A stretch of 64,000 nt of DNA, taken from NCBI GenBank assembly GCA_938028975.1, contig CALHES010000009.1, positions 32,792 to 96,791 of the forward strand. The letters run 5' to 3'. The position numbers and the translations under genes were made by a program. Positions 12,528-53,992 of this stretch are shown here, piece by piece. Under the pieces are notes generated by a model. That model saw only the letters and a list, made by a program, of their open reading frames with translations, had not been told where the DNA came from and searched no databases. Each line of letters begins with the position of its first letter. Position 1 is the stretch's first letter. This DNA comes from an uncultured Clostridia bacterium (GTDB lineage Bacteria > Bacillota > Clostridia > Oscillospirales > Acutalibacteraceae).

Positions 12528-12529
12528 TT

Positions 12530-26112: not shown

Positions 26113-26129
26113 TTAGAAAGTGTGATTTT

Positions 26130-26490: not shown

Positions 26491-26532
26491 CCTGAATTTG
26501 ATATATGTGTTATTATTTGCTTGGGTGGTAAT

Positions 26533-26967: not shown

Positions 26968-27066
26968 TTTACTTTGTTGTTTAATTATTGTGGGTAATTT
27001 TATTGTCTTGTAAATTTAGTTTATATATGTTAAACTTAATGTGTAATAATGAAATGAGGTTAATTT

Positions 27067-27516: not shown

Positions 27517-27540
27517 AAGTAAAAATATTTTCAAAATATA

Positions 27541-27575
27541 AAAAGGCTGAAGAATTTGTTCTTCAGCCTTCTTGT
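27541..27575. terminator. Bidirectional terminator between the converging TM2 gene (+) and ferredoxin-like gene (-)
   Basis: aaaaggctgaagaa-tttg-ttcttcagccttctt. Confidence 0.55.
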
Positions 27576-28282: not shown

Positions 28283-28387
28283 ATTTAAAACTCCTTTTTG
28301 TTTATGTTATTTGCTTGTGTGGCATCATTATAGTATAATTGAGTTGTTAAATATGTTGGAATTGCAACAAAATACGGTGATTTTATA

Positions 28388-29056: not shown

Positions 29057-29062
29057 AAATAA

Positions 29063-29105
29063 AAGCAGGCTACGGCTGTTTCATTGCCTTAACCTGCTTT
29101 TTCTT
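29063..29105. terminator. Bidirectional terminator between the converging Crp/Fnr gene (+) and PHP phosphatase gene (-)
   Basis: aaagcaggctacggctgtttcattgccttaacctgcttttt: stem aagcagg/cctgctt with a long loop, flanked by A-run and T-run. Confidence 0.4.
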
Positions 29106-29885
29106 TTATTTGTGATTCCAAGGAATTAATTTTACTTCCTTTTGCGGAATTATATTTAATTTTTTCAAATAATCGTTTGCCTTTTTAAGATTTATTTTGT
29201 CATCATAAACGTTTGGATTATGAGCGTCTAAGCCGATAACAACCTCGTTGCCTGTTTTTGCGGCAATTTCCCAAAAGTCTTTGTTAGGATAATTCCTTTT
29301 GTCTGTAAATCCCAAAAAGTTAAATTCAATGGGAATGTCAATTTCATTCAAGGCTGTAATCATTTGTTCCATTTTTGCTTTGTAAATACATTTGTCGCCT
29401 GTAAAATTAATTAAATCAGGGTGTGCAATGTAAGTAAATTCACCGCTTTTTGCCGCTTCGATAACCTGCGAAACATATTTGCAAAGTGTTTCTTCGGAAT
29501 CTGTTTGAGTGCCTGAATATTTGGCATAATCTTCATATTCATTATCAACAAAATGTTGACCCAAAATTATAAAATCATAGTGAAAACTTTTTAAATATTC
29601 CAATTCTTTTTTAATTAATTTTGGGTAGTATTCAACTTCAAATCCTAATTTAATTTCTATTTTATCTTTGTATTTTTCTTTCAGCTTCATCACGCTTGAA
29701 ACATAATCTTTTGTTTTATCAAGTTCCATTCTGAATGTGCTTGTATGACCGTTTGGAAAAATATAAGGTGCGTGGTCGGAAAATCCTATTTCATTATATC
29801 CGTTTTTTATTGCCTTAATAACATATTCTTCGTCGGTACCCTTTGCGTGGTGGCATCTGAATGTGTGGTTGTGATAATTGTACAT
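29106..29885 (-). CDS. PHP-family phosphoesterase (histidinol-phosphatase HisK-like)
   Basis: N-terminal HNHTFRCHHAKG and SDHAPY metal-binding motifs of PHP histidinol phosphatases. 259 aa. The gene abuts the galT stop on the same strand. Confidence 0.75.
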   Translation of the reverse strand: MYNYHNHTFRCHHAKGTDEEYVIKAIKNGYNEIGFSDHAPYIFPNGHTSTFRMELDKTKDYVSSVMKLKEKYKDKIEIKLGFEVEYYPKLIKKELEYLKSFHYDFIILGQHFVDNEYEDYAKYSGTQTDSEETLCKYVSQVIEAAKSGEFTYIAHPDLINFTGDKCIYKAKMEQMITALNEIDIPIEFNFLGFTDKRNYPNKDFWEIAAKTGNEVVIGLDAHNPNVYDDKINLKKANDYLKKLNIIPQKEVKLIPWNHK

Positions 29886-31373
29886 TTATTTAACGCTTTC
29901 AATAAATTTAATAAATCCGGCTTTGCCGTTTTCATCTCTTGAATAAACACCGCATTGCTCTAAAATAGATGCAAAAACAGTGCCTATTTCTTTTTGCAAA
30001 ATTTCGTGGCAGTTATCTGCTGTAATGTCGTATTTATTCATTATCATTTCTGCCCATTCTTTATGGCTTGCAATAGACGGAATTTCGCCGATATCTTTTC
30101 CGTTTACCATAGCGTCCGCCAATTCAGCCATTTCATTTTTAAGTCTGCTTGGCAAAACCGCAAGACCCATAACTTCTATTAATCCTATGTTTTCCTTTTT
30201 AATGTGGTGGTATTCGGGGTGTGGATGATAAAATCCTAACGGGCATTCATCTGTTGTAATGTTATTTCTTAAAACAAGGTCAAATTCAAATTCGCCGTTT
30301 CTCATTCTTGCAATAGGTGTTATTGTGTTGTGCGGCTCATCGTTTGTATTTGCGTAAATGAATGACTCTTCATCTGTGTAGTTGCGCCAAGCGTTAAGAA
30401 TTTTATCTGCTAAATCAACAAGTCTTTCCTTGCTTTTTCCGCTTATTCTTATAACACTCATAGGCCATTTTACTATGCCGGCGCTAACATCTTCAAATCC
30501 GTTAAACGTTACTTTTGTTTCAACAGGTGCTTTTGCCATTGCAAATTCGTAATTGCCGCCTTGAAAATGTTCGTGGGTTAAAATTGAACCGCCTACTATC
30601 GGCAAGTCGGCATTTGAACCTATAAAGTAATGCGGAAATTTTTCAATAAAATCAAGCAGTTTTGCAAATGCACTGCGGTCTATTTTCATCGGTGTGTGTT
30701 CTGCATTAAAAACAATGCAATGTTCGTTGTAATAAACATACGGCGAATATTGAATAAAGAATTTTTCACCGCCCAGTTCTGTAGGAATAATCCTGTGGTT
30801 TTGGCGTGCAGGGTGGTTGATTCTGCCGGCATAACCTTCATTTTCTTTACAAAGCAGGCATTTGGGGTAAGATGTGGTTTTCATTTTTAAAGCCGCTGCA
30901 ATGGCTTTTGGGTCTTTTTCCGGCTTTGAAAGATTTATTGTAATATCAATGTCGCCGTAGTCCGTTTTTGTAATCCATTTAATGTCGTTTTTAATTCTGT
31001 ATCGGCGAATATAATCGCTGTCATTGCTTAATTTATAATAGTAGTCTGTTGCTTCTTTTGGTGAGGATTCGTAACGCTTGTAAAATTCGGAAATAACTTC
31101 GCTTGGCTTTGGAGTAAGCAAACCCATAATTTTTGTATCAAACAAATCACGGTAAACAACACTGTCTTCGCACAGCCCGTTTTGTATTGCAAAATCTAAA
31201 ATTGATGATAAAATTTCCTGCAAGTCGGTGCTTGTTGCTTCACAGTCTTCAAAAGAATCTAAATTTAACGCTTCGCAAATTCTGTTAATTGCCCAAATTT
31301 CATCTTCTTTTTCAATCATTTGGTTTGATATTGCATAGTTTGTTAACGATTTAACGGCTGAATAAATGTTCAT
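29886..31373 (-). CDS. galT: UDP-glucose--hexose-1-phosphate uridylyltransferase (GalT, type 2 / Gram-positive form)
   Basis: ~495 aa. Conserved FENxG.AG...H.H(F)Q-type core (GGSILTHEHFQGG). Size and architecture match family-2 GalT. Confidence 0.8.
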   Translation of the reverse strand: MNIYSAVKSLTNYAISNQMIEKEDEIWAINRICEALNLDSFEDCEATSTDLQEILSSILDFAIQNGLCEDSVVYRDLFDTKIMGLLTPKPSEVISEFYKRYESSPKEATDYYYKLSNDSDYIRRYRIKNDIKWITKTDYGDIDITINLSKPEKDPKAIAAALKMKTTSYPKCLLCKENEGYAGRINHPARQNHRIIPTELGGEKFFIQYSPYVYYNEHCIVFNAEHTPMKIDRSAFAKLLDFIEKFPHYFIGSNADLPIVGGSILTHEHFQGGNYEFAMAKAPVETKVTFNGFEDVSAGIVKWPMSVIRISGKSKERLVDLADKILNAWRNYTDEESFIYANTNDEPHNTITPIARMRNGEFEFDLVLRNNITTDECPLGFYHPHPEYHHIKKENIGLIEVMGLAVLPSRLKNEMAELADAMVNGKDIGEIPSIASHKEWAEMIMNKYDITADNCHEILQKEIGTVFASILEQCGVYSRDENGKAGFIKFIESVK

Positions 31374-35693: not shown

Positions 35694-36407
35694 ATGAGCA
35701 CTCAATATAAACGCATTTTGTTAAAATTAAGCGGAGAGGTTCTTGCCGGTTCAAAGGGAACAGGCATTGATAATGAAACAGTTGTAAAAATTTGTAAATC
35801 AGTTAAAAAAGTTGCCGATTTAGGAGTTCAGGTTGGCATTGTAGTCGGCGGCGGAAACTTTTGGCGCGGCAGAACAAGCGAGGGTATGGACCGTGCAAGG
35901 GCAGACCATATCGGCATGCTTGCAACGGCAATGAATTCACTTGCACTTTGCGATGCACTTGAGCAGCTTGGCGCAGATGTAAGAGTTCAAACAGCTATTG
36001 AAATGAGGCAAATTGCCGAACCGTACATCAGAAATAAAGCAATTCGTCATTTTGAAAAAGGCAGAATTGTTATTTTCGGTTGCGGCACAGGTTCACCTTT
36101 CTTTTCAACAGACACTGCTGCCGCTCTTCGCAGCGTTGAAATTAATGCAGATGCTTTGCTTAAAGCAACTAATGTTGACGGCGTTTATGATAAAGACCCG
36201 AATAAATATGACGATGCGGTTAAGTTTGATACCGTTTCATTTAAAGAAGTTATTAACAGAGATTTAAAGGTTATGGATTCAACCGCATTTTCACTTTGTA
36301 AAGATAACGATATGTCAATCGTTGTGTTTAACCTTGAGGAAGACCCTGAAAATGTTGTTAAAGCCGTTATGGGCGAACCTATCGGTACAGTTGTAAGTAA
36401 TAATTAA
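35694..36407 (+). CDS. pyrH: Uridylate kinase
   Basis: [11 protein letters not shown]...[12 protein letters not shown] canonical UMP kinase. Confidence 0.95.
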
Positions 36408-36421
36408 CGGAGGTTTTAGTA

Positions 36422-36976
36422 ATGGAAACTGTATTTAATAAAACGAAAGAAAAAATGGAAAAATGCCTTGATTCTTTAAACAGAGATTATAAGGCTGTTC
36501 GTGCAGGTCGTGCAAACCCTGCTATTTTAGACAGAGTAACGGTTGATTATTACGGCGTACCTACTCCGTTAAATCAAATGGCTGCAATCAGCGTTCCGGA
36601 ACCGAGAATGCTTATGATTCAACCGTGGGATGCAAGCACACTTAAAGAAATCGAAAAGGCAATTAACACTGCCGAAATCGGAATTAATCCAAGTAACGAC
36701 GGTAAAGTTATTCGTCTTGCTTTCCCTGCATTAACGGAAGAACGCAGAAAAGAACTTGTTAAAGATATTTCTAAGCGTGCAGAAGAAGGCAAGGTTGCAG
36801 TTCGCAACGTTCGCCGTGACGCTATGGATGATATTAAAAAGCTAAAAAAAGATAACCAGATTACAGAGGATGACCAAAAAGACGGAGAGAAAAAGCTTCA
36901 AGATATAACAGACAGTTATATTAAACAAATTGAAGAAATGGAAAAAGCAAAAGAGCAGGAAGTTCTTTCAATTTAA
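36422..36976 (+). CDS. frr: Ribosome recycling factor
   Basis: 184 aa. VRAGRANPAILDRVTVDYYG signature. Confidence 0.95.
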   Translation: METVFNKTKEKMEKCLDSLNRDYKAVRAGRANPAILDRVTVDYYGVPTPLNQMAAISVPEPRMLMIQPWDASTLKEIEKAINTAEIGINPSNDGKVIRLAFPALTEERRKELVKDISKRAEEGKVAVRNVRRDAMDDIKKLKKDNQITEDDQKDGEKKLQDITDSYIKQIEEMEKAKEQEVLSI

Positions 36977-37039
36977 TTTTTCTAAAATAAAGGCGGGGGA
37001 TTTCCTCCGCCGTTCTGTCATTTTAAAGGAGCAATAAAA

Positions 37040-37756
37040 ATGGCTATTTTTAATAAAAAAGAACAGGTAAAAACAGAATTTTCTCTTCTTCCGAAACATT
37101 TGGGCATAATTATGGACGGTAACGGCAGATGGGCAAAAAAGCGCGGTTTGCCAAGAACCGCCGGTCATAAAGTGGGCGCCGATGTTTTTAAAAAGATTTC
37201 AAAAGAATGCGGCAGACTCGGTATTGAAGAAGTAACGTTTTATGCTTTTTCTACCGAAAATTGGAAGCGCCCCAAAGAAGAAGTTGACGCTTTAATGAAA
37301 CTTTTTCACGATTATTTAATTGAGGCAAAGGAAGATTTGGAAGAAAGCGGAAATATGCGTATTCACTTCGTAGGCGAGCGTGAGGGTATCAGCCCCGACC
37401 TTTTAAAACTAATGGATGACGCTGTTGAAACCACTGATTCCAGAACAGGCACAATAATTAATCTTGCCGTTAATTACGGCGGCAGGCAGGAAATTGTTTC
37501 AGCCGTAAATAAGCTTATTGCTTCAGGTAAAACATTAATTACGGAAGATGATATAAGCAATAATGTTTACACTGCGCCTGATTGCGATTTAATAATTCGC
37601 CCCAGCGGTGAAGAAAGACTTTCAAATTTCCTTTTGTGGCAGGCAGCTTACAGTGAGTTTTGGTACAGCGATGTTTTGTGGCCTGATTTTACAGAAAAGG
37701 ATTTACACAGTGCACTTGCTGAATTTGAAAAACGAAACCGCAGATTCGGAGGATAA
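37040..37756 (+). CDS. uppS: Isoprenyl transferase / undecaprenyl-diphosphate synthase
   Basis: HLGIIMDGNGRWAK...NYGGRQEI...RPSGEERLSNFLLWQ UPPS motifs. Confidence 0.9.
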   Translation: MAIFNKKEQVKTEFSLLPKHLGIIMDGNGRWAKKRGLPRTAGHKVGADVFKKISKECGRLGIEEVTFYAFSTENWKRPKEEVDALMKLFHDYLIEAKEDLEESGNMRIHFVGEREGISPDLLKLMDDAVETTDSRTGTIINLAVNYGGRQEIVSAVNKLIASGKTLITEDDISNNVYTAPDCDLIIRPSGEERLSNFLLWQAAYSEFWYSDVLWPDFTEKDLHSALAEFEKRNRRFGG

Positions 37757-37759
37757 AAA

Positions 37760-38629
37760 ATGAAACAAAGAGTTATTACGGCGGCAGTATTACTTGCGTT
37801 ACTCGCCATTGTTGTTTGGCAAATAAATACACCTTTATTTGTTGTTGTTATTGCATTTCTTTCGGCTGTTGCCACAAATGAAATTATGAAATGCGCAAAA
37901 GTGAAAAATAGATTTCTTTTAATTGCAGGCACTGCTTTTTCGGCTTGCGTTCCTTTTTTTGCAAGCGGCAAAGTTTTGCTTCCTATTGTAAGCGAAAGTA
38001 CGTGGTCCGGTGTAATCGGTGCTGTTCCCGGTGTTGTTTACATAATTGCGGTTGTGCTTGCATTTTTGCTTGCTATGTTAAAGGGCTATTCTCACACAAG
38101 TTTTGAGGATGTGGCAATTTCTGCTTTTGCTTCTGTTCTTGTTCCTTATGGATTTTCCGTGTTTATTCGCCTTCGTGATATGTTTGCGGATAATGAGCAA
38201 TTCGGCATCTATTTAATTTTCTTCGGACTTATTTGTGCTTTAGGAACAGACAGCGGTGCTCAACTTGGCGGAATGGCGTTTGGCAAACATAAAATGAGTC
38301 CTAACATCAGCCCAAAGAAAACAGTGGAGGGTGCTGTATGCGGCTTGATTTTTGCCCTTGTATTAAATGTTGTGGCTATGGTGCTTTATAATAAGCTTGC
38401 CGCTGTTACTTTAACAAAAACTCAAACAATCGTTCTTGCGTGCGTAAGCGTTCCTGTTTCGTTTATGGGTATGATGGGCGATTTAAGTGCGTCTGTTCTT
38501 AAAAGAAACTTCGGCGTTAAAGATTTTGGAAAAATCTTTCCGGGGCACGGCGGAGTTATGGACAGATTTGATTCATCATTATTCACAATTCCGCTTACAT
38601 ATGCAGTTGCTTTAATTGCTTTTTGTTGA
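37760..38629 (+). CDS. cdsA: Phosphatidate cytidylyltransferase (CDP-diglyceride synthase)
   Basis: Multi-TM protein with C-terminal KRNFGVKDFGKIFPGHGGVMDRFDS CdsA signature. Confidence 0.85.
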   Translation: MKQRVITAAVLLALLAIVVWQINTPLFVVVIAFLSAVATNEIMKCAKVKNRFLLIAGTAFSACVPFFASGKVLLPIVSESTWSGVIGAVPGVVYIIAVVLAFLLAMLKGYSHTSFEDVAISAFASVLVPYGFSVFIRLRDMFADNEQFGIYLIFFGLICALGTDSGAQLGGMAFGKHKMSPNISPKKTVEGAVCGLIFALVLNVVAMVLYNKLAAVTLTKTQTIVLACVSVPVSFMGMMGDLSASVLKRNFGVKDFGKIFPGHGGVMDRFDSSLFTIPLTYAVALIAFC

Positions 38630-38639
38630 GGTGCTTGAT

Positions 38640-39788
38640 ATGAAAAAAATATCAATTTTAGGTTCAACCGGTTCAATAGGCGTTCAGTCTATTGATGTTT
38701 GCAGAATGCACGGTTATGACGTTAAATGCTTAACGGCAAATACAAATGTTAATAAAATTGAACAGCAGGTCAGAGAGTTTCATCCTGAACTTGTTTGTAT
38801 GATGAATGAGGATGCTGCTTCCGATTTAAAAACTAAAATTGCCGACACAAATACAAAAGTTGTTTGCGGTATGGACGGCCTTATTGAATGTGCTATATAT
38901 GACGGCGCCGATATTACTCTTAATTCGGTTGTGGGAATGATTGGACTTCAACCTACATTAGAGGCAATTAAGGCTAAAAAAACAATCGCACTTGCCAATA
39001 AGGAAACACTTGTCGCCGGCGGTCATCTTGTAACAAATGCCGCAAAAGAAAACGGTGTTTCGATTTTGCCTGTAGACAGCGAGCATTCGGCTATTTTTCA
39101 GGCAATGCAGGGCAGTCCGAGAAAAGAAGCTGTGAAAAAAATAATATTAACCGCATCCGGCGGACCGTTCTTTGGCAAAACTTTGTCAGAACTTGAAAAC
39201 GTTACTCCGGCAGACGCTTTAAAACATCCAAATTGGGATATGGGCGCAAAAATAACCATAGATTCTGCCACAATGATGAATAAGGGCTTGGAGTTTATTG
39301 AAGCAAAATGGCTTTTTGATATGCCTAATGAAGATATTGAAATCGTTGTTCACAGGGAATCGGTTGTTCATTCCGCTATAGTTTATCAGGATAATTCGGT
39401 TATTGCACAACTTGGTGTGCCGGATATGAGAATCCCTATTCAGTATGCTCTTACTTATCCGGAGCGTGAGCCGAGCCCCGTGGCTCCTTTATCTCTTGCC
39501 GATTACGGTAAATTAACATTTTTTGAACCGGATTACGATACTTTTAAATGTATTAATGTTTGTAAAAATGCTATTGCAATGGGCGGTTTGCATCCTGCAG
39601 CAGCTAACGGTGCAAACGAAGAAAGCGTAAAACTTTTTCTTCATGGCAAAATTAAATTTACAGACATTGCATATCTTAATGAAGAGGCTATGCTTAAAGC
39701 TGCAGATGTGAAAGATTTTACATTGGCAGATGTGCTTGAAGCAGATAAACAGGCAAGAGAATTTGTAAGAAATACCGTTAATGCTTGA
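38640..39788 (+). CDS. dxr: 1-deoxy-D-xylulose 5-phosphate reductoisomerase
   Basis: MKKISILGSTGSIG NADPH-binding N-terminus, LANKE and SEHSAIFQ motifs. ATG at 38640 after GAGGTG. Confidence 0.95.
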   Translation: MKKISILGSTGSIGVQSIDVCRMHGYDVKCLTANTNVNKIEQQVREFHPELVCMMNEDAASDLKTKIADTNTKVVCGMDGLIECAIYDGADITLNSVVGMIGLQPTLEAIKAKKTIALANKETLVAGGHLVTNAAKENGVSILPVDSEHSAIFQAMQGSPRKEAVKKIILTASGGPFFGKTLSELENVTPADALKHPNWDMGAKITIDSATMMNKGLEFIEAKWLFDMPNEDIEIVVHRESVVHSAIVYQDNSVIAQLGVPDMRIPIQYALTYPEREPSPVAPLSLADYGKLTFFEPDYDTFKCINVCKNAIAMGGLHPAAANGANEESVKLFLHGKIKFTDIAYLNEEAMLKAADVKDFTLADVLEADKQAREFVRNTVNA

Positions 39789-39803
39789 ATATAATCTTTA
39801 GGA

Positions 39804-40847
39804 GTGGTGAATTTGACTTCTGTTTGGAGTTCGGTTTATCCCGTTTTAATTGCAATTTTATTTTTTGAATTAATAATAATTATTCACGAGGGCGGGCATT
39901 TTATTGCCGCCAAGTTAATGAAAATTCGTGTTAATGAATTTGCAATAGGTATGGGACCTAAAATAATTTCTTTTAAGAAAAAAGAAACTCAATATTCTTG
40001 GCGTCTTTTTCCGATAGGCGGTTATTGTGCTATGGAAGGGGAAAGCGAGGAATCCGAAGCAGACGGCTCTTTTTCCAAAAAAAGCGTGTGGGCAAGACTT
40101 TTTGTTGTGGTTGCCGGTGCGTTAATGAATCTAATTTTAGGTTTTATAATAATTTTCGGTTTAATTTGCAGCCAGTCAAGTATAGGCACAACCACGGTTG
40201 CAAAGTTTGACGAAAATGCAGTCAGCTCATCATACGGCTTGCAGGCAGGCGATAAAATTAAAAGTATAGACGGTATGAAAGTTTATACAACAACAGATGT
40301 TCAAACAGGCTTATCACGTTCTAAAGACGGCAGTGTGGATATGACGGTTCAACGAAACGGAAAAACAGTTAATCTTTCCGTTACCTTTGATACCGAGGGT
40401 TATGAGGGAAAACAATATATTGTTATGGATTTTTGGCTTTTAGGTAAAGAAAAAACTCCGTTAAACGTTATTTCCAACGCAGGAAATGTTTTTGTTTCTT
40501 ATGCAAGAATGGTTTTCCTTTCTGTTTATGACCTTATAACCGGAACATACGGCGTTTCGGATTTAAGCGGCCCTGTTGGTGCCGTTTCGGTTGTATCAAG
40601 CGCAGTTAAAACAAATTTATATTCTGCGTTTAAAATGATGGCGTTGCTTACGGTAAATATAGGTTTGTTTAATTTGTTCCCGATTCCCGCTTTAGACGGC
40701 TGGCGGCTGTTTTTATTATTGGCAGAGGGAATTACAAAGAAAAAATTACCGGAAAAATGGGAGTACGGAATTAATGCGGCAGGTCTTGTTTTGTTGCTTG
40801 CCTTAATGGTATTTGTAACTTTTTCCGACATAACAAAGTTATTTTGA
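39804..40847 (+). CDS. rseP: RIP zinc metalloprotease RseP/RasP (site-2 protease) with PDZ domain
   Basis: HEGGHF zinc motif in TM1. PDZ region. C-terminal LDGG motif (IPALDGW). Start uncertain (GTG 39804 or TTG 39813). Confidence 0.85.
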   Translation: MVNLTSVWSSVYPVLIAILFFELIIIIHEGGHFIAAKLMKIRVNEFAIGMGPKIISFKKKETQYSWRLFPIGGYCAMEGESEESEADGSFSKKSVWARLFVVVAGALMNLILGFIIIFGLICSQSSIGTTTVAKFDENAVSSSYGLQAGDKIKSIDGMKVYTTTDVQTGLSRSKDGSVDMTVQRNGKTVNLSVTFDTEGYEGKQYIVMDFWLLGKEKTPLNVISNAGNVFVSYARMVFLSVYDLITGTYGVSDLSGPVGAVSVVSSAVKTNLYSAFKMMALLTVNIGLFNLFPIPALDGWRLFLLLAEGITKKKLPEKWEYGINAAGLVLLLALMVFVTFSDITKLF

Positions 40848-40865
40848 TTTTTGCAGGTGGTAAAA

Positions 40866-41918
40866 ATGATTAAAAGAAGAGAAAGCAAAAAAATTAAATT
40901 AGGAAACACATATATCGGCGGCGATGCACCGATTCTTGTTCAGTCGATGCTTAACATTCCTGCCGATAATATTGAAGGTTCGGTTAATCAGGCAAAGGAA
41001 CTTGCGGCAGCGGGTTGTCAGGTAATCAGGTTTGCCATTCCAAATGAAAAAGCACTTGATTTAATTGAACCTATAAAAGAGGCTGTGAATGTTCCTCTTG
41101 TTGCAGATATTCATTTTGATTACAGACTTGCGCTTGGCGCCGCAGAAAGAGGAATTGATAAAATAAGAATTAATCCCGGCAATATCGGTGATGAATCGAG
41201 AGTTAAAGCGGTTGCAGATATTTGTAAGCAAAAGCAAATACCTATCAGAATCGGCGTTAACAGCGGCAGTCTTGAAAAAGATATTCTTGCAAAATACGGT
41301 TCTCCCACTCCCGAAGCAATGGTGGAATCTGCTTTGTATCACGCTTCCTTGCTGGAAAAATTTGATTTTGATGATATTGTTATTTCCATTAAATCTTCAA
41401 ATGTTGTAACTATGATAAATGCTTATGAGATTGCCGCAGAAAAATGCAATTATCCGCTTCATTTAGGCGTAACAGAGGCAGGCACAGAAAGAATGGGCAT
41501 TATTAAATCGTCTGTCGGCATAGGTTCTTTGCTTGCCAAGGGCATTGGCGATACTATTCGTGTAAGTCTTTCCGATACACCTGTTAAAGAAGTTTTTGCC
41601 GCATTCGATATTCTTAAAGCAGTGGGCTTGAAAAATGATTGTCCGTATTTGATTTCCTGCCCAACATGCGGCAGAACAAAAATTGATTTAATCGGCTTGG
41701 CAAAGCAGGTTGAAGAAAGATTAAAAGATTGTAAAAAACCGATTAAAGTTGCGGTTATGGGTTGTATCGTTAACGGACCCGGCGAGGCGAAAGAGGCAGA
41801 TATAGGAATTGCAGGCGGCGACGGAAACGGACTTATATTTAAAAAAGGTGAAATTTTAAGGAAAGTGCCTGAAGATAAATTGCTTGATGAATTGATGAAA
41901 GAGATAGATAAATTATAA
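40866..41918 (+). CDS. ispG: 4-hydroxy-3-methylbut-2-en-1-yl diphosphate synthase (flavodoxin)
   Basis: GcpE TIM-barrel motifs (INPGNIG, RIGVNSGSL) and the C-terminal CPTCGR...GCIVNGPGE Fe-S cysteines. Confidence 0.95.
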   Translation: MIKRRESKKIKLGNTYIGGDAPILVQSMLNIPADNIEGSVNQAKELAAAGCQVIRFAIPNEKALDLIEPIKEAVNVPLVADIHFDYRLALGAAERGIDKIRINPGNIGDESRVKAVADICKQKQIPIRIGVNSGSLEKDILAKYGSPTPEAMVESALYHASLLEKFDFDDIVISIKSSNVVTMINAYEIAAEKCNYPLHLGVTEAGTERMGIIKSSVGIGSLLAKGIGDTIRVSLSDTPVKEVFAAFDILKAVGLKNDCPYLISCPTCGRTKIDLIGLAKQVEERLKDCKKPIKVAVMGCIVNGPGEAKEADIGIAGGDGNGLIFKKGEILRKVPEDKLLDELMKEIDKL

Positions 41919-44900
41919 TGAATTTGTTTAAAGAATATTTTTCGGATTATGTAGATAATTTTCCCCTTTCAAGTTTGGGAAACGGTGAAATTACCCGCTT
42001 TGCAATCAGAAAAGAGGAAAGAGAACTTATTGTTGTTTTAAATCTCGGCGAATTGGTAGATTATTCAGTGTTTGCCGCTGCACAGGAAAATTTAAAGGCA
42101 AATATGAATTTGAAAAAAGCAACAATTAAGCCACGTTACATAAGCGAACTTTTTGAAACTTCATATTTTGGCAGTATTGTTGAGTTTGTTAAAAAGCAAA
42201 ATTCAGCTGCAAACGGATTCTTTGATGATGCCGATGTTGAAGTTAATAATAATGAATTAACCGTTTACTTAAAAAAAGGCGGAAAAGATATTTTACTTGC
42301 CCAAAAGGTAAACGAGGATATAGAAAATGTAATACTTGATTTGTTTGGCATTTCTTTTAAAATTTCTTTTGTGGAAACACAGGCTTTTGACATTGAAAAG
42401 GCTGTTAAAGAGGTTGTTGCACAAAAAAATGCACATGAAGAACAGGTTAAAGCAGAGCAGGCAAAAAATATTAAGCACACCCTTTTGGGCGACTTGCCTA
42501 TTTATGAGGATACGCAAAAAATTATTTTCGGCAGAAGTATTCGTGAAAAGCCAAAGCCGATGAATCAAGTGCAAATAGACGACGGCATTATTACCGTTTG
42601 GGGAGATGTTCTTAAAACAGACGTAAGAGATACCAAAAGGGGCGACAGCAAAATTTTCTCTTTTGATATTTCTGATTACACATCATCGCTAACATGTAAA
42701 ATGTTTGACAGTAACAAGGTTATTGAACCTGTTATTGATAAAATTGCAAATGCAAAAACGCTCATAGTAAGCGGCGGTTATCAGTATGATAAATTTGCAA
42801 ACGAATATGTTTTAAGACCAAACAGTATTGCAACGGTTTTAAAAGCCGAAAAGGAAGACAATGCACCCGAAAAAAGAATAGAACTTCATATGCATACCTC
42901 TTTGTCTGAAATGGACGGAATTTCTTCTCCCAAATCACTTGTTAATCAGGCAATAAAATGGGGGCATAAGGCTGTTGCAATTACAGACCACGGCGTTGTT
43001 CAGGCTTTGCCGGAGGCATATGCAGCAGCAAAAGGCAAAATTAAACTTATTTTGGGAATGGAGGGCTATTTGGTTGATGACACTAAGTATCCCGATTTCA
43101 TGAATATGAAATTAAATCAATTTAAACGTCATCATATTATTTTTCTTGTTAAGGAAGATACATCTATGGATGAATCTATTCCCAAGGAAGAAAGAAAGTA
43201 CGGCAGAAAAAATCTTTACGAACTTATTTCTGCATCAAATGTTAAATATTTTAAAAACAGACCGCTTATTCCAAAATCTCTTCTTGCCAAAAAAAGGGCA
43301 GGCATTATTGTTGGTTCGGCTTGTGAACAGGGCGAAGTTTATCAAGCAATATTAGAGGGCGTAAGCGACGAAGAACTTGAAAAAATCGCTTCATTTTATG
43401 ATTACCTTGAAATTCAGCCAAACGGCAACAATGAATTTATGCTCAGAACAAGTAATCAGGAATATGTGCTTAATAAGCGTGGCGAAGAAAAGAAAAACGT
43501 TTATTGGCGTGTTAACTCGGAAGAAGATTTAATTAACATAAATAAAAAAATCATTTCAGTTGCGGATAAATTGGGCAAGCTTACCGTTGCCACCGGCGAC
43601 GTGCATTTTTTAAGTGAAAAAGACGCTAAATTCAGGGCTATTATTATGGCGTCAAAAGGTTTTGACGATGCTGATAATCAGGCACCGTTGTATTTTAAAA
43701 CTACTGATGAAATGCTTGCCGATTTTGCATGGGCAGGAGACAGGGCAAAGGAATTTGTTGTAGACAATCCGCAAAAAATTGCTGATAGCATTATGGACGA
43801 TATTCCGCCTATTCCTCCCGGAACGTTCCAACCGCATATTGACGGCGCAAATGAGGAACTTACGGAAAAATGCTGGAAAAGAGCAAAGGAATTGTACGGC
43901 GACCCTGTGCCGGAATATGTTGCCTCAAGACTTCAAAGAGAGCTTGATTCAATTATCGGGCACGGCTTTGGCGTTCTTTATGTTATTGCAAAACGTCTTG
44001 TTGAGGAAAGTGAAAGAAACGGCTATCTTGTAGGCTCAAGAGGTTCTGTAGGCTCTTCTTTTGCCGCTCATATGGGCGGTATTTCAGAGGTTAACCCTCT
44101 TGCACCACACTACTATTGCAAAAAATGCAAGCATAGTGAATTTTTCTTAAACGGCGAATACGGTTCGGGATTTGATTTACCGCCTAAAAATTGCCCTAAC
44201 TGCAATATTCCTATGAAAAGGGACGGTCATGAAATTCCTTTTGAAACATTCCTTGGATTTGACGGCGATAAAGAGCCTGATATTGACCTTAATTTCAGCG
44301 GTGAATATCAATCCCGTTCCCACAGATACACGGAAGAATTGTTTGGTAAGGAATATGTGTTTAAAGCCGGAACAATGGCAACAGTTGCGGATAAAACCGC
44401 TTACGGTTATGTTAAAAAGTACCTTGAAGAAAGAGGTCTTAAAGTAACCCGTGCAGAAGAGGACAGGCTTACCGTTGGCTGTACGGGTATTAAAAGAACA
44501 ACCGGTCAGCACCCGGGCGGAATGGTCGTTGTGCCGGATAAATATACGGTTGAAGATTTTACACCTATTCAATATCCTTCAAACGATGAAAAGAAAGGCA
44601 CTTACACAACTCACTTTGACTTTAAAAATTCTCTTCACGACACACTTTTAAAGCTTGATGAACTTGGTCATGATAATCCTACGCTTTATAAATATCTTGA
44701 GGATTCCACAGGTATTCCTGTTATGGAAGTTGATTTGTCTGACCCTAAATTGTATCAGCTTATCACTTCTACAGAACCTATAGGTGTTTCTCCCGAAGAT
44801 ATAGATTGTTCAACAGGTACTCTTGCTATTCCTGAAATGGGTACACCGTTTGTAATCGGTATGCTTGAAGAAGCAAAGCCAAAAACATTTGCCGATTTGC

Positions 44901-45754
44901 TTCAAATTTCAGGCCTTTCTCACGGTACGGATGTTTGGCTTGGAAATGCACAAGAGCTTATTGATAACGGCACTTGCACAATTTCTCAGGTTATCGGCTG
45001 CCGTGATGATATTATGACTTACCTTATTCATAAAACCGAAAAGTATGAAAAGGAAACCGGCAAGGAATCGCCTCTTTCAAAAAAAGATTGCTTTAAGATT
45101 ATGGAATATACCCGTAAAGGTAAAGCACCAAAAGAATTGCCTCCTTATGAACAGGCAATGAAAACCGTAGGTGTTGAACAGTGGTATATTGATTCCTGTT
45201 ATAAAATTAAATACATGTTCCCCAAGGCGCATGCTGCGGCTTATGTTATTGCCGCTCTTCGTCTTGCTTGGTATAAAATATATTATCCTCTTGATTTTTA
45301 TGCGGCATACTTTACTGTTCGCGGCGGCGCTATTGATGCTGTTTCCGCAGTGGCAGGTAAGGATGCGGTAAAAGCAAAAATGCTTGAATATCAGGAAAAG
45401 AAAAAAGCCGGCGGCGTTACGGCAAAAGATGATTCAACTTATGTTGTAAACCAAATTGTTATTGAAATGCTTGCAAGGGGAATTGAATTTTTACCTGTTG
45501 ATATTTATAAATCGGATGCAAGAATTTATAAAATCGAAAACGGAAAAATTCGTTTGCCTTTCGGCGCTATTGACGGTATTGGTGAAAATGCGGCAAAAGC
45601 AATAGCACAGGCAAAGGATGACGGAAACGGCGAATTTATATCTTATGACGATTTAATGGCACGTGCCGGAATAGGCAGAAGCGTTGTTGACGCTCTTAAA
45701 GAAGCAGGCGCATTGGGTGATATGCCGGAATCAAGTCAAATTTCGTTGTTTTGA
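41918..45754 (+). CDS. polC: DNA polymerase III PolC-type (Gram-positive replicative polymerase). This copy apparently lacks the 3'-5' exonuclease domain.
   Basis: OB domain. PHP motif HMHTSLSEMDG...ITDHG. PolC-specific zinc finger CKKCKHSEF...CPNC. Palm/fingers motifs (GSRGSVGSS, FDGDKEPDIDLNF). No DEDDh motifs anywhere. 1278 aa versus ~1430 aa for canonical PolC. Confidence 0.9.
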   Translation: MNLFKEYFSDYVDNFPLSSLGNGEITRFAIRKEERELIVVLNLGELVDYSVFAAAQENLKANMNLKKATIKPRYISELFETSYFGSIVEFVKKQNSAANGFFDDADVEVNNNELTVYLKKGGKDILLAQKVNEDIENVILDLFGISFKISFVETQAFDIEKAVKEVVAQKNAHEEQVKAEQAKNIKHTLLGDLPIYEDTQKIIFGRSIREKPKPMNQVQIDDGIITVWGDVLKTDVRDTKRGDSKIFSFDISDYTSSLTCKMFDSNKVIEPVIDKIANAKTLIVSGGYQYDKFANEYVLRPNSIATVLKAEKEDNAPEKRIELHMHTSLSEMDGISSPKSLVNQAIKWGHKAVAITDHGVVQALPEAYAAAKGKIKLILGMEGYLVDDTKYPDFMNMKLNQFKRHHIIFLVKEDTSMDESIPKEERKYGRKNLYELISASNVKYFKNRPLIPKSLLAKKRAGIIVGSACEQGEVYQAILEGVSDEELEKIASFYDYLEIQPNGNNEFMLRTSNQEYVLNKRGEEKKNVYWRVNSEEDLININKKIISVADKLGKLTVATGDVHFLSEKDAKFRAIIMASKGFDDADNQAPLYFKTTDEMLADFAWAGDRAKEFVVDNPQKIADSIMDDIPPIPPGTFQPHIDGANEELTEKCWKRAKELYGDPVPEYVASRLQRELDSIIGHGFGVLYVIAKRLVEESERNGYLVGSRGSVGSSFAAHMGGISEVNPLAPHYYCKKCKHSEFFLNGEYGSGFDLPPKNCPNCNIPMKRDGHEIPFETFLGFDGDKEPDIDLNFSGEYQSRSHRYTEELFGKEYVFKAGTMATVADKTAYGYVKKYLEERGLKVTRAEEDRLTVGCTGIKRTTGQHPGGMVVVPDKYTVEDFTPIQYPSNDEKKGTYTTHFDFKNSLHDTLLKLDELGHDNPTLYKYLEDSTGIPVMEVDLSDPKLYQLITSTEPIGVSPEDIDCSTGTLAIPEMGTPFVIGMLEEAKPKTFADLLQISGLSHGTDVWLGNAQELIDNGTCTISQVIGCRDDIMTYLIHKTEKYEKETGKESPLSKKDCFKIMEYTRKGKAPKELPPYEQAMKTVGVEQWYIDSCYKIKYMFPKAHAAAYVIAALRLAWYKIYYPLDFYAAYFTVRGGAIDAVSAVAGKDAVKAKMLEYQEKKKAGGVTAKDDSTYVVNQIVIEMLARGIEFLPVDIYKSDARIYKIENGKIRLPFGAIDGIGENAAKAIAQAKDDGNGEFISYDDLMARAGIGRSVVDALKEAGALGDMPESSQISLF

Positions 45755-45837: not shown

Positions 45838-47448
45838 ATGAAACGTTATGCAAAGCTTACTCCCCAGGGAAGCAGAGATTTGCTTTTTGAAGAATGTGAT
45901 GACAGAAAGAATATTGAAACTGTTTTGTCTTCGCTTTATAAAGAAAACAATTATCGCAAAGTTATTACTCCTACTATTGAATATTTTGATGTGTTTGACA
46001 GTGATAACATAGGCATTGAAGCTGAAGAAATGTATAAGCTTACAGACAGCTACGGCAGAACAACCGTTCTTCGCCCAGATAATACAATGCCTATTGCCCG
46101 CCTTGTTGCCACAAGACTTACAAAAAACGATTTTCCCGTTAGGTTATACTATAATCAAAACATTTTTGTAAGAAATAAGGCGCTTGCCGGCAGAACAGAT
46201 GAAATTGCCCAAAGCGGTATTGAGTTTATCGGCGACGGTTCTCTTGAAGCTGATTTGGAAGTTCTTTCAATGGCTGTTGAAGCATTGAAAAGGGTTAATC
46301 TTAATTTTAAAATTGAAATCGGTCATGCCGGATTCTTTAATGCCGTTTTAAATAATATGAATATTACAAAAACGGAAAAAGCAGATATATGCAAACTTAC
46401 AGAGGGAAAAAATTATTCCGCTTTAGGTGATTTGCTTAATAAAATAGGCGATACCGCAGAAACTGCCGTGCTTCATAAACTTCCACGCCTTTTTGGCGGA
46501 ATTGAGGTGCTTGAAGTTGCTAAAGAACTTTATAAAAATGATGATGCAAATAAAGCACTTGATTATATTAAAACAGTTTATGAAAAACTTGTTGATATGG
46601 GCATGGAAAACAGCGTAATGATAGATTTGGGGCTTGTTAACAGGTCAAATTATTACACAGGCATTATTTTCCGCGGTTATGCACAGGGTTCTGGGTTAAC
46701 AATTCTTTCCGGCGGCAGATATGATAATCTTATAGGCGAATTCGGCACAGATGCTCCGGCAGTAGGTTTTGGCGTTAATGTTACGGCGTTAACAAACGCA
46801 GTTAACGAAACAATAAATGTTGAGCGCCCAATCAGAATTGCATTAACAAAAGGCAGGCTTGAAAAAAGCTCCGTATCCTTGTTTAAAAAAATGGGCATTG
46901 ATACAAGTGAACTTGAAAATAAAGGCAGAAGGCTTATTCTTCCTATAGGAAAATATGAGGCCGTTTTGTCAAAAGCACCGGATGTTATAACTTATGTTGA
47001 ACACGGCGTTTGCGACATTGGCGTGGTAGGTAAAGATACTATTGTTGAACACGGTAATTCTTTTTATGAAGTTATTGATTTAAATATAGGTAAATGCAGA
47101 TTTGCTCTTGCATGTCCTAAAGGAACAGACTTCTTTTCCGGTCATAAGCGCAAAACCGTTGCTTCAAAATATCCTAAGGTTGCTAAAGAATTTTTTAAAT
47201 CAAAGGGTATGGATGTTGATATAATTAAAATTGAGGGCAGTGTGGAATTGGCACCGCTTCTCGGCTTGGCAGACGGAATTGTTGATATTGTTGAAACAGG
47301 CTCAACTTTAAAAGAAAACGGACTTGAAGTTGTGGAAGAAATTTTGCCTATTTCAGCAAGAGTAATTGTTAATATGGCTTCAATGAAGTTAAGAAAAGAT
47401 GAAATTGAAACTTTTCTTGCAGATATGGAAAAAGCAAGTAAGGCGTGA
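45838..47448 (+). CDS. hisZG: Fused ATP phosphoribosyltransferase: HisZ regulatory (HisRS-like) domain + short-form HisG catalytic domain in one 536-aa polypeptide
   Basis: Residues 1-~325 are HisZ-like (class-II aaRS-like core, no anticodon-binding domain). From ~330 the canonical HisG N-terminus starts (IRIALTKGRLEKSSVSLFKKMGID...) with no stop or start codon between the two parts. Confidence 0.8.
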   Translation: MKRYAKLTPQGSRDLLFEECDDRKNIETVLSSLYKENNYRKVITPTIEYFDVFDSDNIGIEAEEMYKLTDSYGRTTVLRPDNTMPIARLVATRLTKNDFPVRLYYNQNIFVRNKALAGRTDEIAQSGIEFIGDGSLEADLEVLSMAVEALKRVNLNFKIEIGHAGFFNAVLNNMNITKTEKADICKLTEGKNYSALGDLLNKIGDTAETAVLHKLPRLFGGIEVLEVAKELYKNDDANKALDYIKTVYEKLVDMGMENSVMIDLGLVNRSNYYTGIIFRGYAQGSGLTILSGGRYDNLIGEFGTDAPAVGFGVNVTALTNAVNETINVERPIRIALTKGRLEKSSVSLFKKMGIDTSELENKGRRLILPIGKYEAVLSKAPDVITYVEHGVCDIGVVGKDTIVEHGNSFYEVIDLNIGKCRFALACPKGTDFFSGHKRKTVASKYPKVAKEFFKSKGMDVDIIKIEGSVELAPLLGLADGIVDIVETGSTLKENGLEVVEEILPISARVIVNMASMKLRKDEIETFLADMEKASKA

Positions 47449-48738: not shown

Positions 48739-49818
48739 ATGAAATCAAAAATTACTGCGCTGCTGCTTGTTGTATTAACCTTGTTTTCGTTTACCGCCTG
48801 TTCGGCAAATATTTCACAAAATACCGTTGAAGAAACAACGGCGGCACAAACTGAAAATAACAATGACTTAATCGTGCATTTTATTGATGTGGGTCAAGGG
48901 GACAGCGAGTTTATTCAGTTCCCAAACGGTACTAATATGCTTATTGACGCCGGTGAAACCGATAAGGGTCAGGTTGTTTGCGATTATTTAAAATCCCTTG
49001 GCGTAAATACAATTAATTATGTTGTTGCTACTCATCCTCATTCGGACCATATCGGCGGTTTTGGCGATGTATTTGATAATTTTAATGTTCAAACGGTTTA
49101 TATGCCAAATGCCGTATCAACTTCATATTGTTTTGAAACATTGCTTGATAAAATAGAGGCGCAGGGATGTAAAACCGTTCAGGCAAAAAACGGCGTAACC
49201 GTTATAAATGAAAACAGCTTAACAGCGTCTTTTCTTTCGCCTGTAGATGATGAGTATGATGAGTTAAACGATTATTCCGCTGTTTTAAAAGTCAGCTATG
49301 GCGAAACGTCGTTTTTGTTTATGGGCGATGCCGAATCGCTTGTGGAAAATGAAATAAAGTCCAATGTTTCGGCAGATGTTATAAAAGTTGGGCATCACGG
49401 CTCTAAAACCTCGTCAAGTGAGGATTTTGTAAATCGCGTACACCCTAAATATGCCGTTTTTGAAGTTGGCAGTGACAACTCATACGGACATCCCGTTTCT
49501 TCTGTTGTTGAACGTTATAAAAATGTTGGGGCAGAAATTTTAAGAACCGATAAAAACGGAAATATTGTAATTACTTCTGACGGAAAAAATATAAATGTTT
49601 CCGTCAGTGAAGATAAAAATGTAAATTCAAATGACGCCGCACAAACAACAAGTGAATATAAATGGGTTTTAAATAAAAAATCCAAAAAAATTCATTATCC
49701 AAGTTGCGGTTCTTTAAATAATACAAAGGATGAAAACAAGGAATATTCAAACGAAAGCATAGTAAATCTTGAAAAAAGCGGATATACCTGTTGTAAATCC
49801 TGTAATCCAAGTGAGTAA
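48739..49818 (+). CDS. Lipoprotein with a ComEC/Rec2-type metallo-beta-lactamase domain and a Cys-rich C-terminal tail
   Basis: Lipobox LFSFTAC|S. MBL motifs VATHPHSDHIGG...VGHHGS. C-terminal YPSCGS...GYTCCKSCNP putative metal-binding tail. Inserted between hisD and hisB. Confidence 0.7.
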   Translation: MKSKITALLLVVLTLFSFTACSANISQNTVEETTAAQTENNNDLIVHFIDVGQGDSEFIQFPNGTNMLIDAGETDKGQVVCDYLKSLGVNTINYVVATHPHSDHIGGFGDVFDNFNVQTVYMPNAVSTSYCFETLLDKIEAQGCKTVQAKNGVTVINENSLTASFLSPVDDEYDELNDYSAVLKVSYGETSFLFMGDAESLVENEIKSNVSADVIKVGHHGSKTSSSEDFVNRVHPKYAVFEVGSDNSYGHPVSSVVERYKNVGAEILRTDKNGNIVITSDGKNINVSVSEDKNVNSNDAAQTTSEYKWVLNKKSKKIHYPSCGSLNNTKDENKEYSNESIVNLEKSGYTCCKSCNPSE

Positions 49819-51644: not shown

Positions 51645-51968
51645 ATGGATTTAATTAAAAACGAATATCAGGTTATTATAGACAGAAAAAACGAGCAGGC
51701 AGAAGGTTCTTATACTGCTTACCTTTTTGAACAGGGAATTGATAAAATTCTTAAAAAGGTGGGCGAAGAATGTACAGAAACAATAGTTGCCGCAAAAAAT
51801 AACGATAAAGACGAAACCGTTTATGAAATTACGGATTTAATTTATCACACCTTGGTTTTAATGGCTTATCAGGGAATAACTCCCGAAGATGTTGAAGCAG
51901 AACTTGAAAAAAGAGCTGCTAAAAGAGGCAATCTTAAAAAATTTCATCAGGTGGATAAAAATTCATAA
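51645..51968 (+). CDS. hisE: Phosphoribosyl-ATP pyrophosphatase (stand-alone)
   Basis: SYTAYLFEQGIDKILKKVGEECTETIVAAKN...EITDLIYHTLVL MazG-like HisE signature. Confidence 0.85.
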   Translation: MDLIKNEYQVIIDRKNEQAEGSYTAYLFEQGIDKILKKVGEECTETIVAAKNNDKDETVYEITDLIYHTLVLMAYQGITPEDVEAELEKRAAKRGNLKKFHQVDKNS

Positions 51969-53992
51969 TGGCGTACAAAAAATGGATTATAGCAGATGCA
52001 GACAAAGAAAAAGCTTCTGTTTTAAGTGAAAAATTTAATATAGACCCGTTTATTTCATTTTTAATGGTTGCAAGGGGAATAGACAATGATTTGGCATTTT
52101 CCGATTTTCTTTCGTCTTCTTTTGAATTTTCCGACCCGTTTTGTTTGGCAGATATGGATAAAGCGGTGAACAGAATTGAAGCCGCTGTAGCCGATAATGA
52201 AAAAATAACTGTTTACGGCGACTATGATTGCGACGGTGTAACATCTACGGCACTTCTTGTATCTCTTTTAAAAGAGATGGGTGCCGATGTTGATTTTTAT
52301 ATCCCTTCAAGAGAAAAAGAGGGTTACGGTTTAAATATTTCCGCTATTGATAAAATAAAAGAAAATAATACAGATTTAATTATAACTGTTGATAACGGCA
52401 TTGCTTCTGTTGATGAGGCAAATTATATTTCCTCATTGGGTATGGATTTGGTAATTACAGACCATCACCAACTTGGTGAAACTTTGCCAAATGCTGTTGC
52501 CGTTGTTAATCCCTACAGACCTGAAAATAACATTCGTTTTCGTGATATTTGCGGCGTCGGCGTTGCTTTTAAGCTTGCATGTGCTCTTTACGGCGATACG
52601 GATGATATGCTTTATACTTACGGCGATCTCGTTGCTATCGGCACAATCGCCGATATGGTTCCTCTTTTAAGTGAAAACAGAGGCTTTGTTAAAACCGGAT
52701 TAAAACTTATAAATTCCGGCAACCGACCCGGTATAGCCGCATTGAAAAAAATTGCCGGCGGTGATAAAATATTTACTTCCACAGACACGGCATTTTTAAT
52801 TTGCCCAAGAATTAATGCAACCGGCAGAATAGACAGCGCGTCTGTTGCTGTTGAATTGCTTTTGTGCGATAATGAAGAAGATGCAAACCGCCTTGCGGCA
52901 AAGCTTAACGATGATAATGTGCGCCGTCAGGAATTGGAACAGGAAATTTATAATGATGTAAAAAAACAAATTGAAAATAACAAAAGCCTTGTGGAAAACA
53001 GAGTCATTGTTATTTCAGGTGCAGAATATCATCACGGCATAGTCGGCATAGTTGCATCACGAATTCTTGACGAATATTCAAAACCCGTAATTATTATCGG
53101 CGAGGGAGAGGACGGATTTGCCCGTGGCTCTGCCAGAAGCGTAGACGGATTTAATATTTTCGAGGCAATATCATATTGTAAAGATTTATTAATTCAATTC
53201 GGCGGTCATCCCCGTGCCGCAGGTATGGGGCTTGTTAACAGTGCCGTTAATGATTTTCGTGAAAAAATAAATGAATATGCCAATAATAATTATGACGTTA
53301 TGCCTTGCCAAGCAATAAATATTGATTGCAAGCTTTCACCTTTTTATCTTGATATCGGTCTTGTAGACAGTTTGAACATTATGGAGCCTTTTGGAGAAAA
53401 TAATCCAAAAGCGGTTTTTGCTTTAACAGGGCTTAATTTATTGGCTGTTGTTCCCCTTTCAAATGGAAAGCACGTTCGACTTGAATGTGAAAAAAAGGGT
53501 AAAAAAATTAAAATAGTAAAATTCAGAACTTCGGCAGATAATTTTCCGTTTAAAGCTCACGATAAAATAGATGTTGCCGTAAGAATATCAAAAAATTTAT
53601 ATAACGGCAAAGAATATCTTTCCGTGCAGGCTGTTGATGTTCGATTGTCCGGAATTGATGAGAAAAAATATTTTAACGAAAAAACGGTTTATGAAAAGTT
53701 TTTGATTAATAAAAACAATGATTCTTCCGTTGTCCCCAATAAAACCGACTGTGCATATATTTATAAGTTTTTAAAAGCAAATAACGGCTGGCACGGTGAT
53801 TTTGACAGCTTGTATTTTAGATTGAAAGATATTACATACGGTAAATTAAAATTTGCTTTTGCAATTTTTGAAGAATGCGGATTTATTAAGTATGACGGTA
53901 AAAAAATCACTCTTTTAAACGTTGCTTCTAAAGTTGATTTAACTCAAACAAATACTATGAAATCCTTGAAAGGAAGACTTAATCTTGGCTGA
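51968..53992 (+). CDS. recJ: Single-stranded-DNA-specific exonuclease RecJ
   Basis: DHH motifs (YGDYDCDGVTS, DHH in VITDHHQ), DHHA1 domain (GGHPRAAG) and C-terminal OB-like domain. Confidence 0.9.
   Translation: MAYKKWIIADADKEKASVLSEKFNIDPFISFLMVARGIDNDLAFSDFLSSSFEFSDPFCLADMDKAVNRIEAAVADNEKITVYGDYDCDGVTSTALLVSLLKEMGADVDFYIPSREKEGYGLNISAIDKIKENNTDLIITVDNGIASVDEANYISSLGMDLVITDHHQLGETLPNAVAVVNPYRPENNIRFRDICGVGVAFKLACALYGDTDDMLYTYGDLVAIGTIADMVPLLSENRGFVKTGLKLINSGNRPGIAALKKIAGGDKIFTSTDTAFLICPRINATGRIDSASVAVELLLCDNEEDANRLAAKLNDDNVRRQELEQEIYNDVKKQIENNKSLVENRVIVISGAEYHHGIVGIVASRILDEYSKPVIIIGEGEDGFARGSARSVDGFNIFEAISYCKDLLIQFGGHPRAAGMGLVNSAVNDFREKINEYANNNYDVMPCQAINIDCKLSPFYLDIGLVDSLNIMEPFGENNPKAVFALTGLNLLAVVPLSNGKHVRLECEKKGKKIKIVKFRTSADNFPFKAHDKIDVAVRISKNLYNGKEYLSVQAVDVRLSGIDEKKYFNEKTVYEKFLINKNNDSSVVPNKTDCAYIYKFLKANNGWHGDFDSLYFRLKDITYGKLKFAFAIFEECGFIKYDGKKITLLNVASKVDLTQTNTMKSLKGRLNLG

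Follow-up and report, generated by a model that had tools for sequence, protein, structure and literature searches.

A clostridial PolC replicase without a DEDDh exonuclease domain and with an intact PHP metal site

Introduction

PolC is the essential replicase of the Firmicutes, and antibiotics directed at it, for example ibezapolstat, are in clinical development. How such an enzyme might edit its errors when its exonuclease domain is missing is the question raised by the polC gene described here, which lies in a 64,000-nucleotide stretch of contig CALHES010000009.1 (the window, to which all coordinates refer) from an uncultured gut Clostridia species of the Eubacterium coprostanoligenes group (Oscillospiraceae/Ruminococcaceae). 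The gene (41918..45754, + strand) encodes a PolC-type DNA polymerase III alpha subunit of 1278 amino acids (aa) with an N-terminal domain (NTD), an OB fold, a PHP domain, a Pol3 core and a helix-hairpin-helix (HhH) domain, and it lacks the DEDDh 3'-5' exonuclease (Exo). In PolC this exonuclease is inserted in a PHP loop that lines the groove towards the PHP active site (Banos-Mateos et al. 2017, PMC5636811).

PolC enzymes of this kind have been recognized before. Timinskas et al. 2014 (Nucleic Acids Res. 42:1393, PMC3919608) reported that the Exo insertion is missing from 6% of PolCs; with a single exception these come from Clostridia and Negativicutes, two groups in which the partner of PolC is DnaE1, not DnaE3. 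The window PolC belongs to this Exo-less class, and the phenomenon, published in 2014, is not new. A first-pass annotation of the window had described the enzyme as a replicase without intrinsic proofreading that would depend either on a trans-acting epsilon-like exonuclease or on PHP-based editing.

Results

Analysis of the window PolC by Pfam identified no RNase_T/DEDDh domain (PF00929), even at E<=1, and regular-expression scans of the entire protein revealed no Exo I or Exo III motif, consistent with the earlier statement that such motifs are absent from its 1278 residues. The NCBIfam PolC equivalogs matched in two stretches and left the Exo region of the profile unmatched, with the second stretch joining query position 427 to profile position 624 of 1445. 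Alignment with 9qpc, a full-length PolC structure, placed query residue 389 at chain position 432 and query residue 427 at chain position 649; about 216 residues of full-length PolC are therefore replaced by 37 residues in the window PolC. Pfam, NCBIfam, the 9qpc alignment and the motif scans all agree that the DEDDh exonuclease is missing, as had been proposed from the sequence.

The 37 replacing residues comprise a 16-aa loop, PHP strand beta-4 and a clade-specific 15-aa loop. The interval 43060..43280 (residues 381-455) reads MEGYLVDD-TKYPDFMNMKLNQFKR-HHIIFLVKE...RPLIPKSL, and the residues quoted for it in the first-pass annotation match the translation exactly. In order, the junction runs from beta-3 (KLILGMEGYLVDD) through the 16-residue beta-3/beta-4 loop (T389-R404; 43082..43129, +), beta-4 (HHIIFLVKE, residues 405-413; 43130..43156, +) and the 15-residue surface loop (DTSMDESIPKEERKY, D414-Y428; 43157..43201, +) to the conserved helix GRKNLYELIS. 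The first loop was delimited by the 9qpc alignment and by comparing the junctions of Exo-containing and Exo-less representatives, and beta-4, which was modelled as a strand over residues 91-97 of the modelled fragment, aligns with FHLTLLAKD in the DnaE of Thermus aquaticus (Taq) and FHVTLLAQ in the PolC of Geobacillus kaustophilus (Gka). The junction that had been described as a linker of about 17 aa followed by HHIIFLVKE is thus real, but the linker is 16 aa long and a second loop follows beta-4. Junction alignments showed that this second loop is missing from other PolCs and that the junction total in the clade falls into three length classes of 28, 41 or 52 residues; in E. coprostanoligenes ATCC 51222 the post-beta-4 loop is enlarged to about 26 residues (ADNSMPMRLDENWRPVMDEPEDGIIH) compared with 15 in the window PolC. 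This surface loop evolves rapidly and lies next to the place where Exo was once inserted.

A model of residues 315-641, built with AlphaFold2 (AF2) on a 41-sequence alignment, displayed a complete PHP fold (mean predicted local distance difference test score, pLDDT, 95; predicted TM-score, pTM, 0.92). The junction was placed confidently, with block pLDDT values of 96-98 for the 16-residue loop and about 93 for the 15-residue loop, and the predicted structure leaves no room for a further domain hidden there. Foldseek comparison of the model yielded query TM-scores (TMq) of 0.76-0.82 against PolC PHP domains and 0.67-0.69 against DnaE PHP domains. The corresponding PHP loop measures 29 residues in Mycobacterium tuberculosis (Mtb) DnaE1, 18 in Taq and 9 in Escherichia coli (PMC5636811), and the 16-residue loop of the window PolC brings back a DnaE-like arrangement.

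Examination of the PHP metal site revealed that all nine ligands are intact. Five are contributed by the N-terminal part of the domain, which spans strands beta-1 to beta-3 (H324, H326, D333, H358 and E382; residues 320-388, 42875..43081, +), one by beta-4 (H406) and three by the C-terminal part (C469 in GSAC, and D561 and H563 in GDVH; residues 429-640, 43202..43837, +). Each ligand aligns with its counterpart in Taq DnaE (2hpi) and Mtb DnaE1 (5lew); the Mtb and Thermus DnaE1 PHP domains are established Zn-dependent proofreaders (PMC5636811). In contrast, Gka PolC and 9qpc, both native-Exo enzymes, have GNVH where the window PolC keeps the Asp (D561) of GDVH, and Gka PolC, with one mutated PHP ligand, has no PHP exonuclease activity (PMC5636811). 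The same nine-residue motif was used in a 2026 survey to call PHP domains 'active' (PMC12926913).

The nine-ligand signature, HHDHEHCDH, is kept in 196 of 197 clade sequences, at identities down to 62%. We extended the comparison to 130 PolC representatives at the 50% identity level (24 Exo-less and 106 Exo-containing), retrieved with residues 220-1278 of the window PolC as query. The nine ligands were complete in 23 of the 24 independent Exo-less representatives compared with 66 of the 106 Exo-containing ones (Fisher's exact test, P = 0.0011, uncorrected for phylogeny).

The absence of the exonuclease is shared by the relatives of the host. None of the best 120 homologous protein clusters, drawn from NCBI, ENA, JGI and Logan assemblies (79-99% identity, 1266-1302 aa), contained PF00929, and 80 species-representative genomes yielded full-length polC matches of 3.76-3.93 kb. 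These relatives are labelled Eubacterium, Ruminococcaceae, Oscillospiraceae or Clostridia; they include the isolate type strain E. coprostanoligenes ATCC 51222, Firmicutes bacterium CAG:341, Eubacterium sp. CAG:251 and a complete 2.04-Mb chromosome from a metagenome-assembled genome (MAG; CP091724.1). The best genome match, at 99% identity, was a Hadza-gut MAG of an uncultured Eubacterium sp. (CAKSWS010000022.1). In CP091724.1 the polC region (9971..13891 of the retrieved locus, L075) is broken into several open reading frames (ORFs), which we read as frameshift sequencing errors, not as a true pseudogene.

We also searched the window and the 80 related polC loci for a separate proofreader. 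A hidden Markov model (HMM) built from 102 PolC Exo domains and run on 8922 ORFs from the window and these loci gave nothing significant; the best score was E=0.003, in an ORF of about 730 aa. No DEDDh/RNase_T protein was found by Pfam and NCBIfam scans of essentially all window genes, and no second C-family polymerase gene (polC or dnaE) was present in the window or within 10 kb of polC at the 80 loci. Two window genes were considered as nucleases and rejected. The first, a stand-alone 259-aa PHP protein (29106..29885, -), is a HisJ-family histidinol phosphatase (TIGR01856, above cut-off), and its gene lies away from the his operon and adjoins galT. The second, RecJ (51968..53992), belongs to the DHH family. 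RecJ is a 5'-3' exonuclease and hence no candidate for proofreading.

Apart from the missing domain, the window PolC is a complete enzyme. The uninterrupted ORF scored well above the cut-offs of the NCBIfam PolC equivalogs PRK00448 (1377 bits compared with 873) and TIGR01405 (1249 bits compared with 1043), and residues 220-1278 matched the Gka PolC structure 3f2b at E=0. Pfam identified PolC-NII, OB, PHP (322-494), Pol3 alpha NTPase, finger and HHH_6 domains, in the order typical of PolC: NTD, OB fold N-terminal to PHP, Pol3 core, HhH and a C-terminal clamp motif. N-terminal domain II occupies residues 83-182 (42164..42463, +; PF11490, E=1.4e-6). The OB fold covers residues 236-304 (42623..42829, +; PF01336, E=1.3e-4, under the gathering score) and aligns with the OB domain of 3f2b. 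The zinc finger CKKC...CPNC (C734, C737, C759 and C762; 44117..44203, +) aligns with CPNCKH...CPRC of Gka PolC. The polymerase palm (44276..44674, +; PF07733) carries the catalytic residues D788 and D790 in PDIDLNF, which is the same in Gka PolC, and D914 in LLKLDELGHD, one residue apart from Gka LLKLDILGHD. A tandem HhH domain (residues 1188-1270; 45479..45727, +; PF14579, E=1.6e-16) precedes the C-terminal beta-clamp-binding motif QISLF (residues 1274-1278; 45737..45751, +), which resembles the QxxLF-type PolC motifs QLSLF and QIELF in the supplement of Timinskas et al. The OB domain, PHP domain, zinc finger and polymerase core, which had all been described as intact, are so by the Pfam matches, the 3f2b alignment and the catalytic and Cys4 residues.

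The genes pyrH-frr-uppS-cdsA-dxr-rseP-ispG, identified by Pfam and NCBIfam scans, lie directly upstream of polC in conserved synteny (35694..41918, +), and the polC ATG overlaps the ispG stop codon (TAATG). We take this arrangement to be the canonical Firmicutes position of polC, as at the B. subtilis locus, and we regard the window gene as the functional ortholog that encodes the replicase, not as an accessory copy. Directly upstream of the pyrH-frr-uppS block is a gene for a 781-aa BspA-type leucine-rich-repeat protein, probably surface-exposed (PF13306; 33163..35508, +). The ORF directly downstream of polC encodes a 536-aa fusion (45838..47448, +) of HisZ (residues 1 to about 326, TIGR00443) with short-form HisG (residues 332-511, TIGR00070). 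Within the his operon, between hisD and the imidazoleglycerol-phosphate dehydratase gene, the place expected for hisC is taken by a gene for a 359-aa metallo-beta-lactamase-fold protein (48739..49818, +) that resembles the C-terminal part of ComEC/Rec2 (TIGR00361, E=1.5e-39, under cut-off); no gene for an aminotransferase was identified in the window. A patch at 26000..30000 has a GC content of 0.33, compared with about 0.37-0.39, and negative AT skew. Its genes include a PIN7-domain ORF (25315..25881), a DUF2442 ORF (26130..26423), a GNAT gene, a gene for a TM2/zinc-ribbon protein and a ferredoxin-like gene on the minus strand.

Discussion

The reading that we favor, with a probability of about 0.6, is that the window PolC proofreads by means of its own PHP domain, in the manner of the DnaE1 enzymes of Mycobacterium and Thermus. 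The PHP domain would edit a mismatched primer terminus through a metal-dependent 3'-5' exonuclease activity; the DEDDh module would then have become redundant and been lost, and its excision would have left the DnaE-like 16-residue beta-3/beta-4 loop and a complete PHP domain. From the intact site we infer that the PHP center has catalytic activity on DNA and that it performs the proofreading. The host genome presumably encodes a DnaE1 partner as well, as do all Clostridia surveyed in the literature. Of the two forms of compensation put forward in the first-pass annotation, PHP-based editing has better support than a trans-acting epsilon-like exonuclease, because the nine ligands are intact and no epsilon-like gene turned up in the window or, in relatives, at a distance of up to 10 kb from polC. 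The description of the enzyme as being without intrinsic proofreading is probably wrong, since the PHP domain is itself intrinsic.

A related enzyme provides indirect, genetic support. In Clostridium thermocellum PolC (Clo1313_1219), the substitution C669Y changes a PHP ligand Cys and produces a roughly 30-fold hypermutator; its authors equated C669 with Gka C670, which in our alignment corresponds to C469 of the window PolC.

Several observations weigh against PHP-based proofreading. The C669Y mutator phenotype could stem from destabilization of the protein and not from lost catalysis, and we found no biochemical assay of PHP exonuclease activity in the literature for any PolC. The 20 nearest representatives, Exo-containing and Exo-less alike, all possess an intact PHP site; an intact PHP site is the ancestral state of clostridial PolCs generally, so that the presence of one in the window PolC is not in itself proof of compensation. 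In addition, one Exo-less representative of the 24, P0235 (1178 aa), has a degenerate PHP site (HRSLENSDQ) and, by its sequence, would have neither candidate proofreading site. The P0235 cluster has 9 members, on contigs of up to 134 kb.

The alternative that survives best, though we consider it unlikely, is that PolC has no proofreading role of its own in this host, with bulk synthesis and editing carried out by a DnaE1 with an active PHP domain, or with less accurate replication backed by mismatch repair. Timinskas et al. raised this possibility for PolC plus DnaE1 systems (PMC3919608): the Exo-less PolCs all occur in clostridial genomes, and the PHP site and clamp motif of clostridial DnaE1 are perfect. 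PolCs that have neither Exo nor the PHP ligands can occur, as P0235 demonstrates. However, the nine ligands persist in 196 of the 197 sequences from the clade and in 23 of the 24 Exo-less lineages, a pattern that speaks for purifying selection on the PHP site. The polymerase catalytic residues of the window PolC are intact, its clamp motif is near-consensus, and its gene occupies what we take to be the canonical polC locus. Moreover, the PHP mutation in C. thermocellum PolC causes its 30-fold mutator phenotype although DnaE1 is expressed, which indicates that the PolC PHP domain matters for genome fidelity in that organism.

Somewhat less probable still is a separate DnaQ/epsilon-like DEDDh exonuclease, encoded elsewhere in the genome, that binds PolC in the way epsilon binds E. 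coli DnaE. Stand-alone DnaQ homologues are common, at an average of more than three per bacterial proteome (PMC12926913), and mycobacteria use DnaQ as a second proofreader beside PHP (PMC11348249); our DEDDh search covered the 64-kb window and the polC neighborhoods, which leaves room for such a gene elsewhere. Against this, neither the window nor the sequence within 10 kb of polC in the 80 related genomes contained a DEDDh-like ORF, and the PHP domain of the window PolC does not exhibit the decay seen in the epsilon-dependent E. coli DnaE, in which five of the nine ligands are altered (PMC5636811). Editing by the PHP domain of PolC is the reading that we prefer to either of these alternatives.

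An artefact, whether an assembly or binning deletion, a pseudogene or an overlooked and highly divergent Exo domain, has nothing in its favor (the frameshifted polC of CP091724.1 is read as sequencing error) and is dismissed: the window ORF is uninterrupted, an assembly deletion is ruled out by the same architecture in 80 independently assembled species genomes, including the isolate type strain, and in more than 100 clusters, and a hidden Exo domain is ruled out by the lack of any DEDDh signal in Pfam, NCBIfam and motif scans and by the high-confidence AF2 junction, in which all 37 residues between the flanking PHP elements are modelled as PHP. The two findings that the first-pass annotation had said would overturn its claim, a divergent DEDDh domain or an assembly deletion, were therefore not made. 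In practice, annotators should treat this short polC as a genuine gene that is neither truncated nor misassembled.

The wider comparison hints at a recurrent process. On a neighbor-joining (NJ) tree of the 130 representatives (848 core columns), Exo-less enzymes were scattered among Exo-containing ones, with 18 parsimony changes in Exo state under an Exo-containing root and 14-20 across 29 bootstrap replicates; such trees are rough, being distance-based with saturated divergences and no taxon labels, and a few representatives could be gene-call artefacts. The junctions of the Exo-less representatives also differ in length and composition. This scatter, together with the unrelated junctions, suggests that Exo may have been lost recurrently and independently, which we offer as a lead and not as a result. 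More tentatively, and with the balance of our judgment slightly against it, many independent losses in Clostridia and Negativicutes, nearly all on a background of an intact PHP site, could mean that the PHP domain of clostridial PolC is active and suffices for proofreading. If this were true, the E. coprostanoligenes clade would hold a natural, culturable PolC with PHP as its only proofreader. This clade is abundant in the gut and has a cultured member, E. coprostanoligenes, and its naturally Exo-less PolC, in which the PHP site is intact, offers a ready test case for PHP proofreading in PolC.

Comparison with known systems

The closest published counterparts are the other Exo-less PolCs. Among the matches listed in the supplement of Timinskas et al. 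2014, at least two PolCs, both from Acidaminococcus, have this architecture; they are NTD+OB+PHP+Pol3+HhH proteins with the PHP signature HHDHEHCDH (9/9), from genomes of the PolC plus DnaE1 (PC+E1) type. The window PolC resembles enzymes such as that of Acidaminococcus fermentans (YP_003399045.1) in domain order, in lacking the Exo insertion and in its nine PHP ligands, and it shares with the class the C-terminal QxxLF clamp motif and a Clostridia host. It differs in its lineage, the E. coprostanoligenes group, in its junction sequence and in the extra 15-aa loop after beta-4.

Canonical PolC (B. subtilis, Gka 3f2b and 9qpc) and the window PolC have the domain order, zinc finger, catalytic triad and HhH domain in common, and the window PolC passes the equivalog cut-offs; it is about 40-57% identical to the PolC representatives of the 50% clustering level. 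It departs from canonical PolC in lacking the DEDDh exonuclease of about 200 aa, and from Gka and 9qpc in having Asp where these have Asn in GNVH. The alignment with the crystallized Gka construct (1041 aa) is continuous and crosses the junction by way of a GSGSG segment. We take this construct to be an engineered Exo deletion, which the natural window PolC resembles.

Compared with the PHP-exonuclease DnaE1 enzymes (M. tuberculosis, 5lew and 7pu7; Thermus, 2hpi), the window PolC has a nine-residue metal site of the same composition and the same PHP fold (TMq 0.67-0.69 against DnaE PHP domains). As in Taq DnaE, no domain is inserted in the beta-3/beta-4 loop next to the active site, and this loop is short, at 16 aa compared with 18 aa in Taq. 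Unlike DnaE1, the window PolC has the PolC domain order with an N-terminal OB fold, and identity between the PHP domains is only about 20-25%.

C. thermocellum PolC is likewise a clostridial PolC from a PolC plus DnaE1 system, and the Cys whose mutation causes the mutator phenotype is the equivalent of C469. C. thermocellum PolC keeps its Exo domain, whereas in the window PolC the PHP domain would be the sole intrinsic candidate proofreader.

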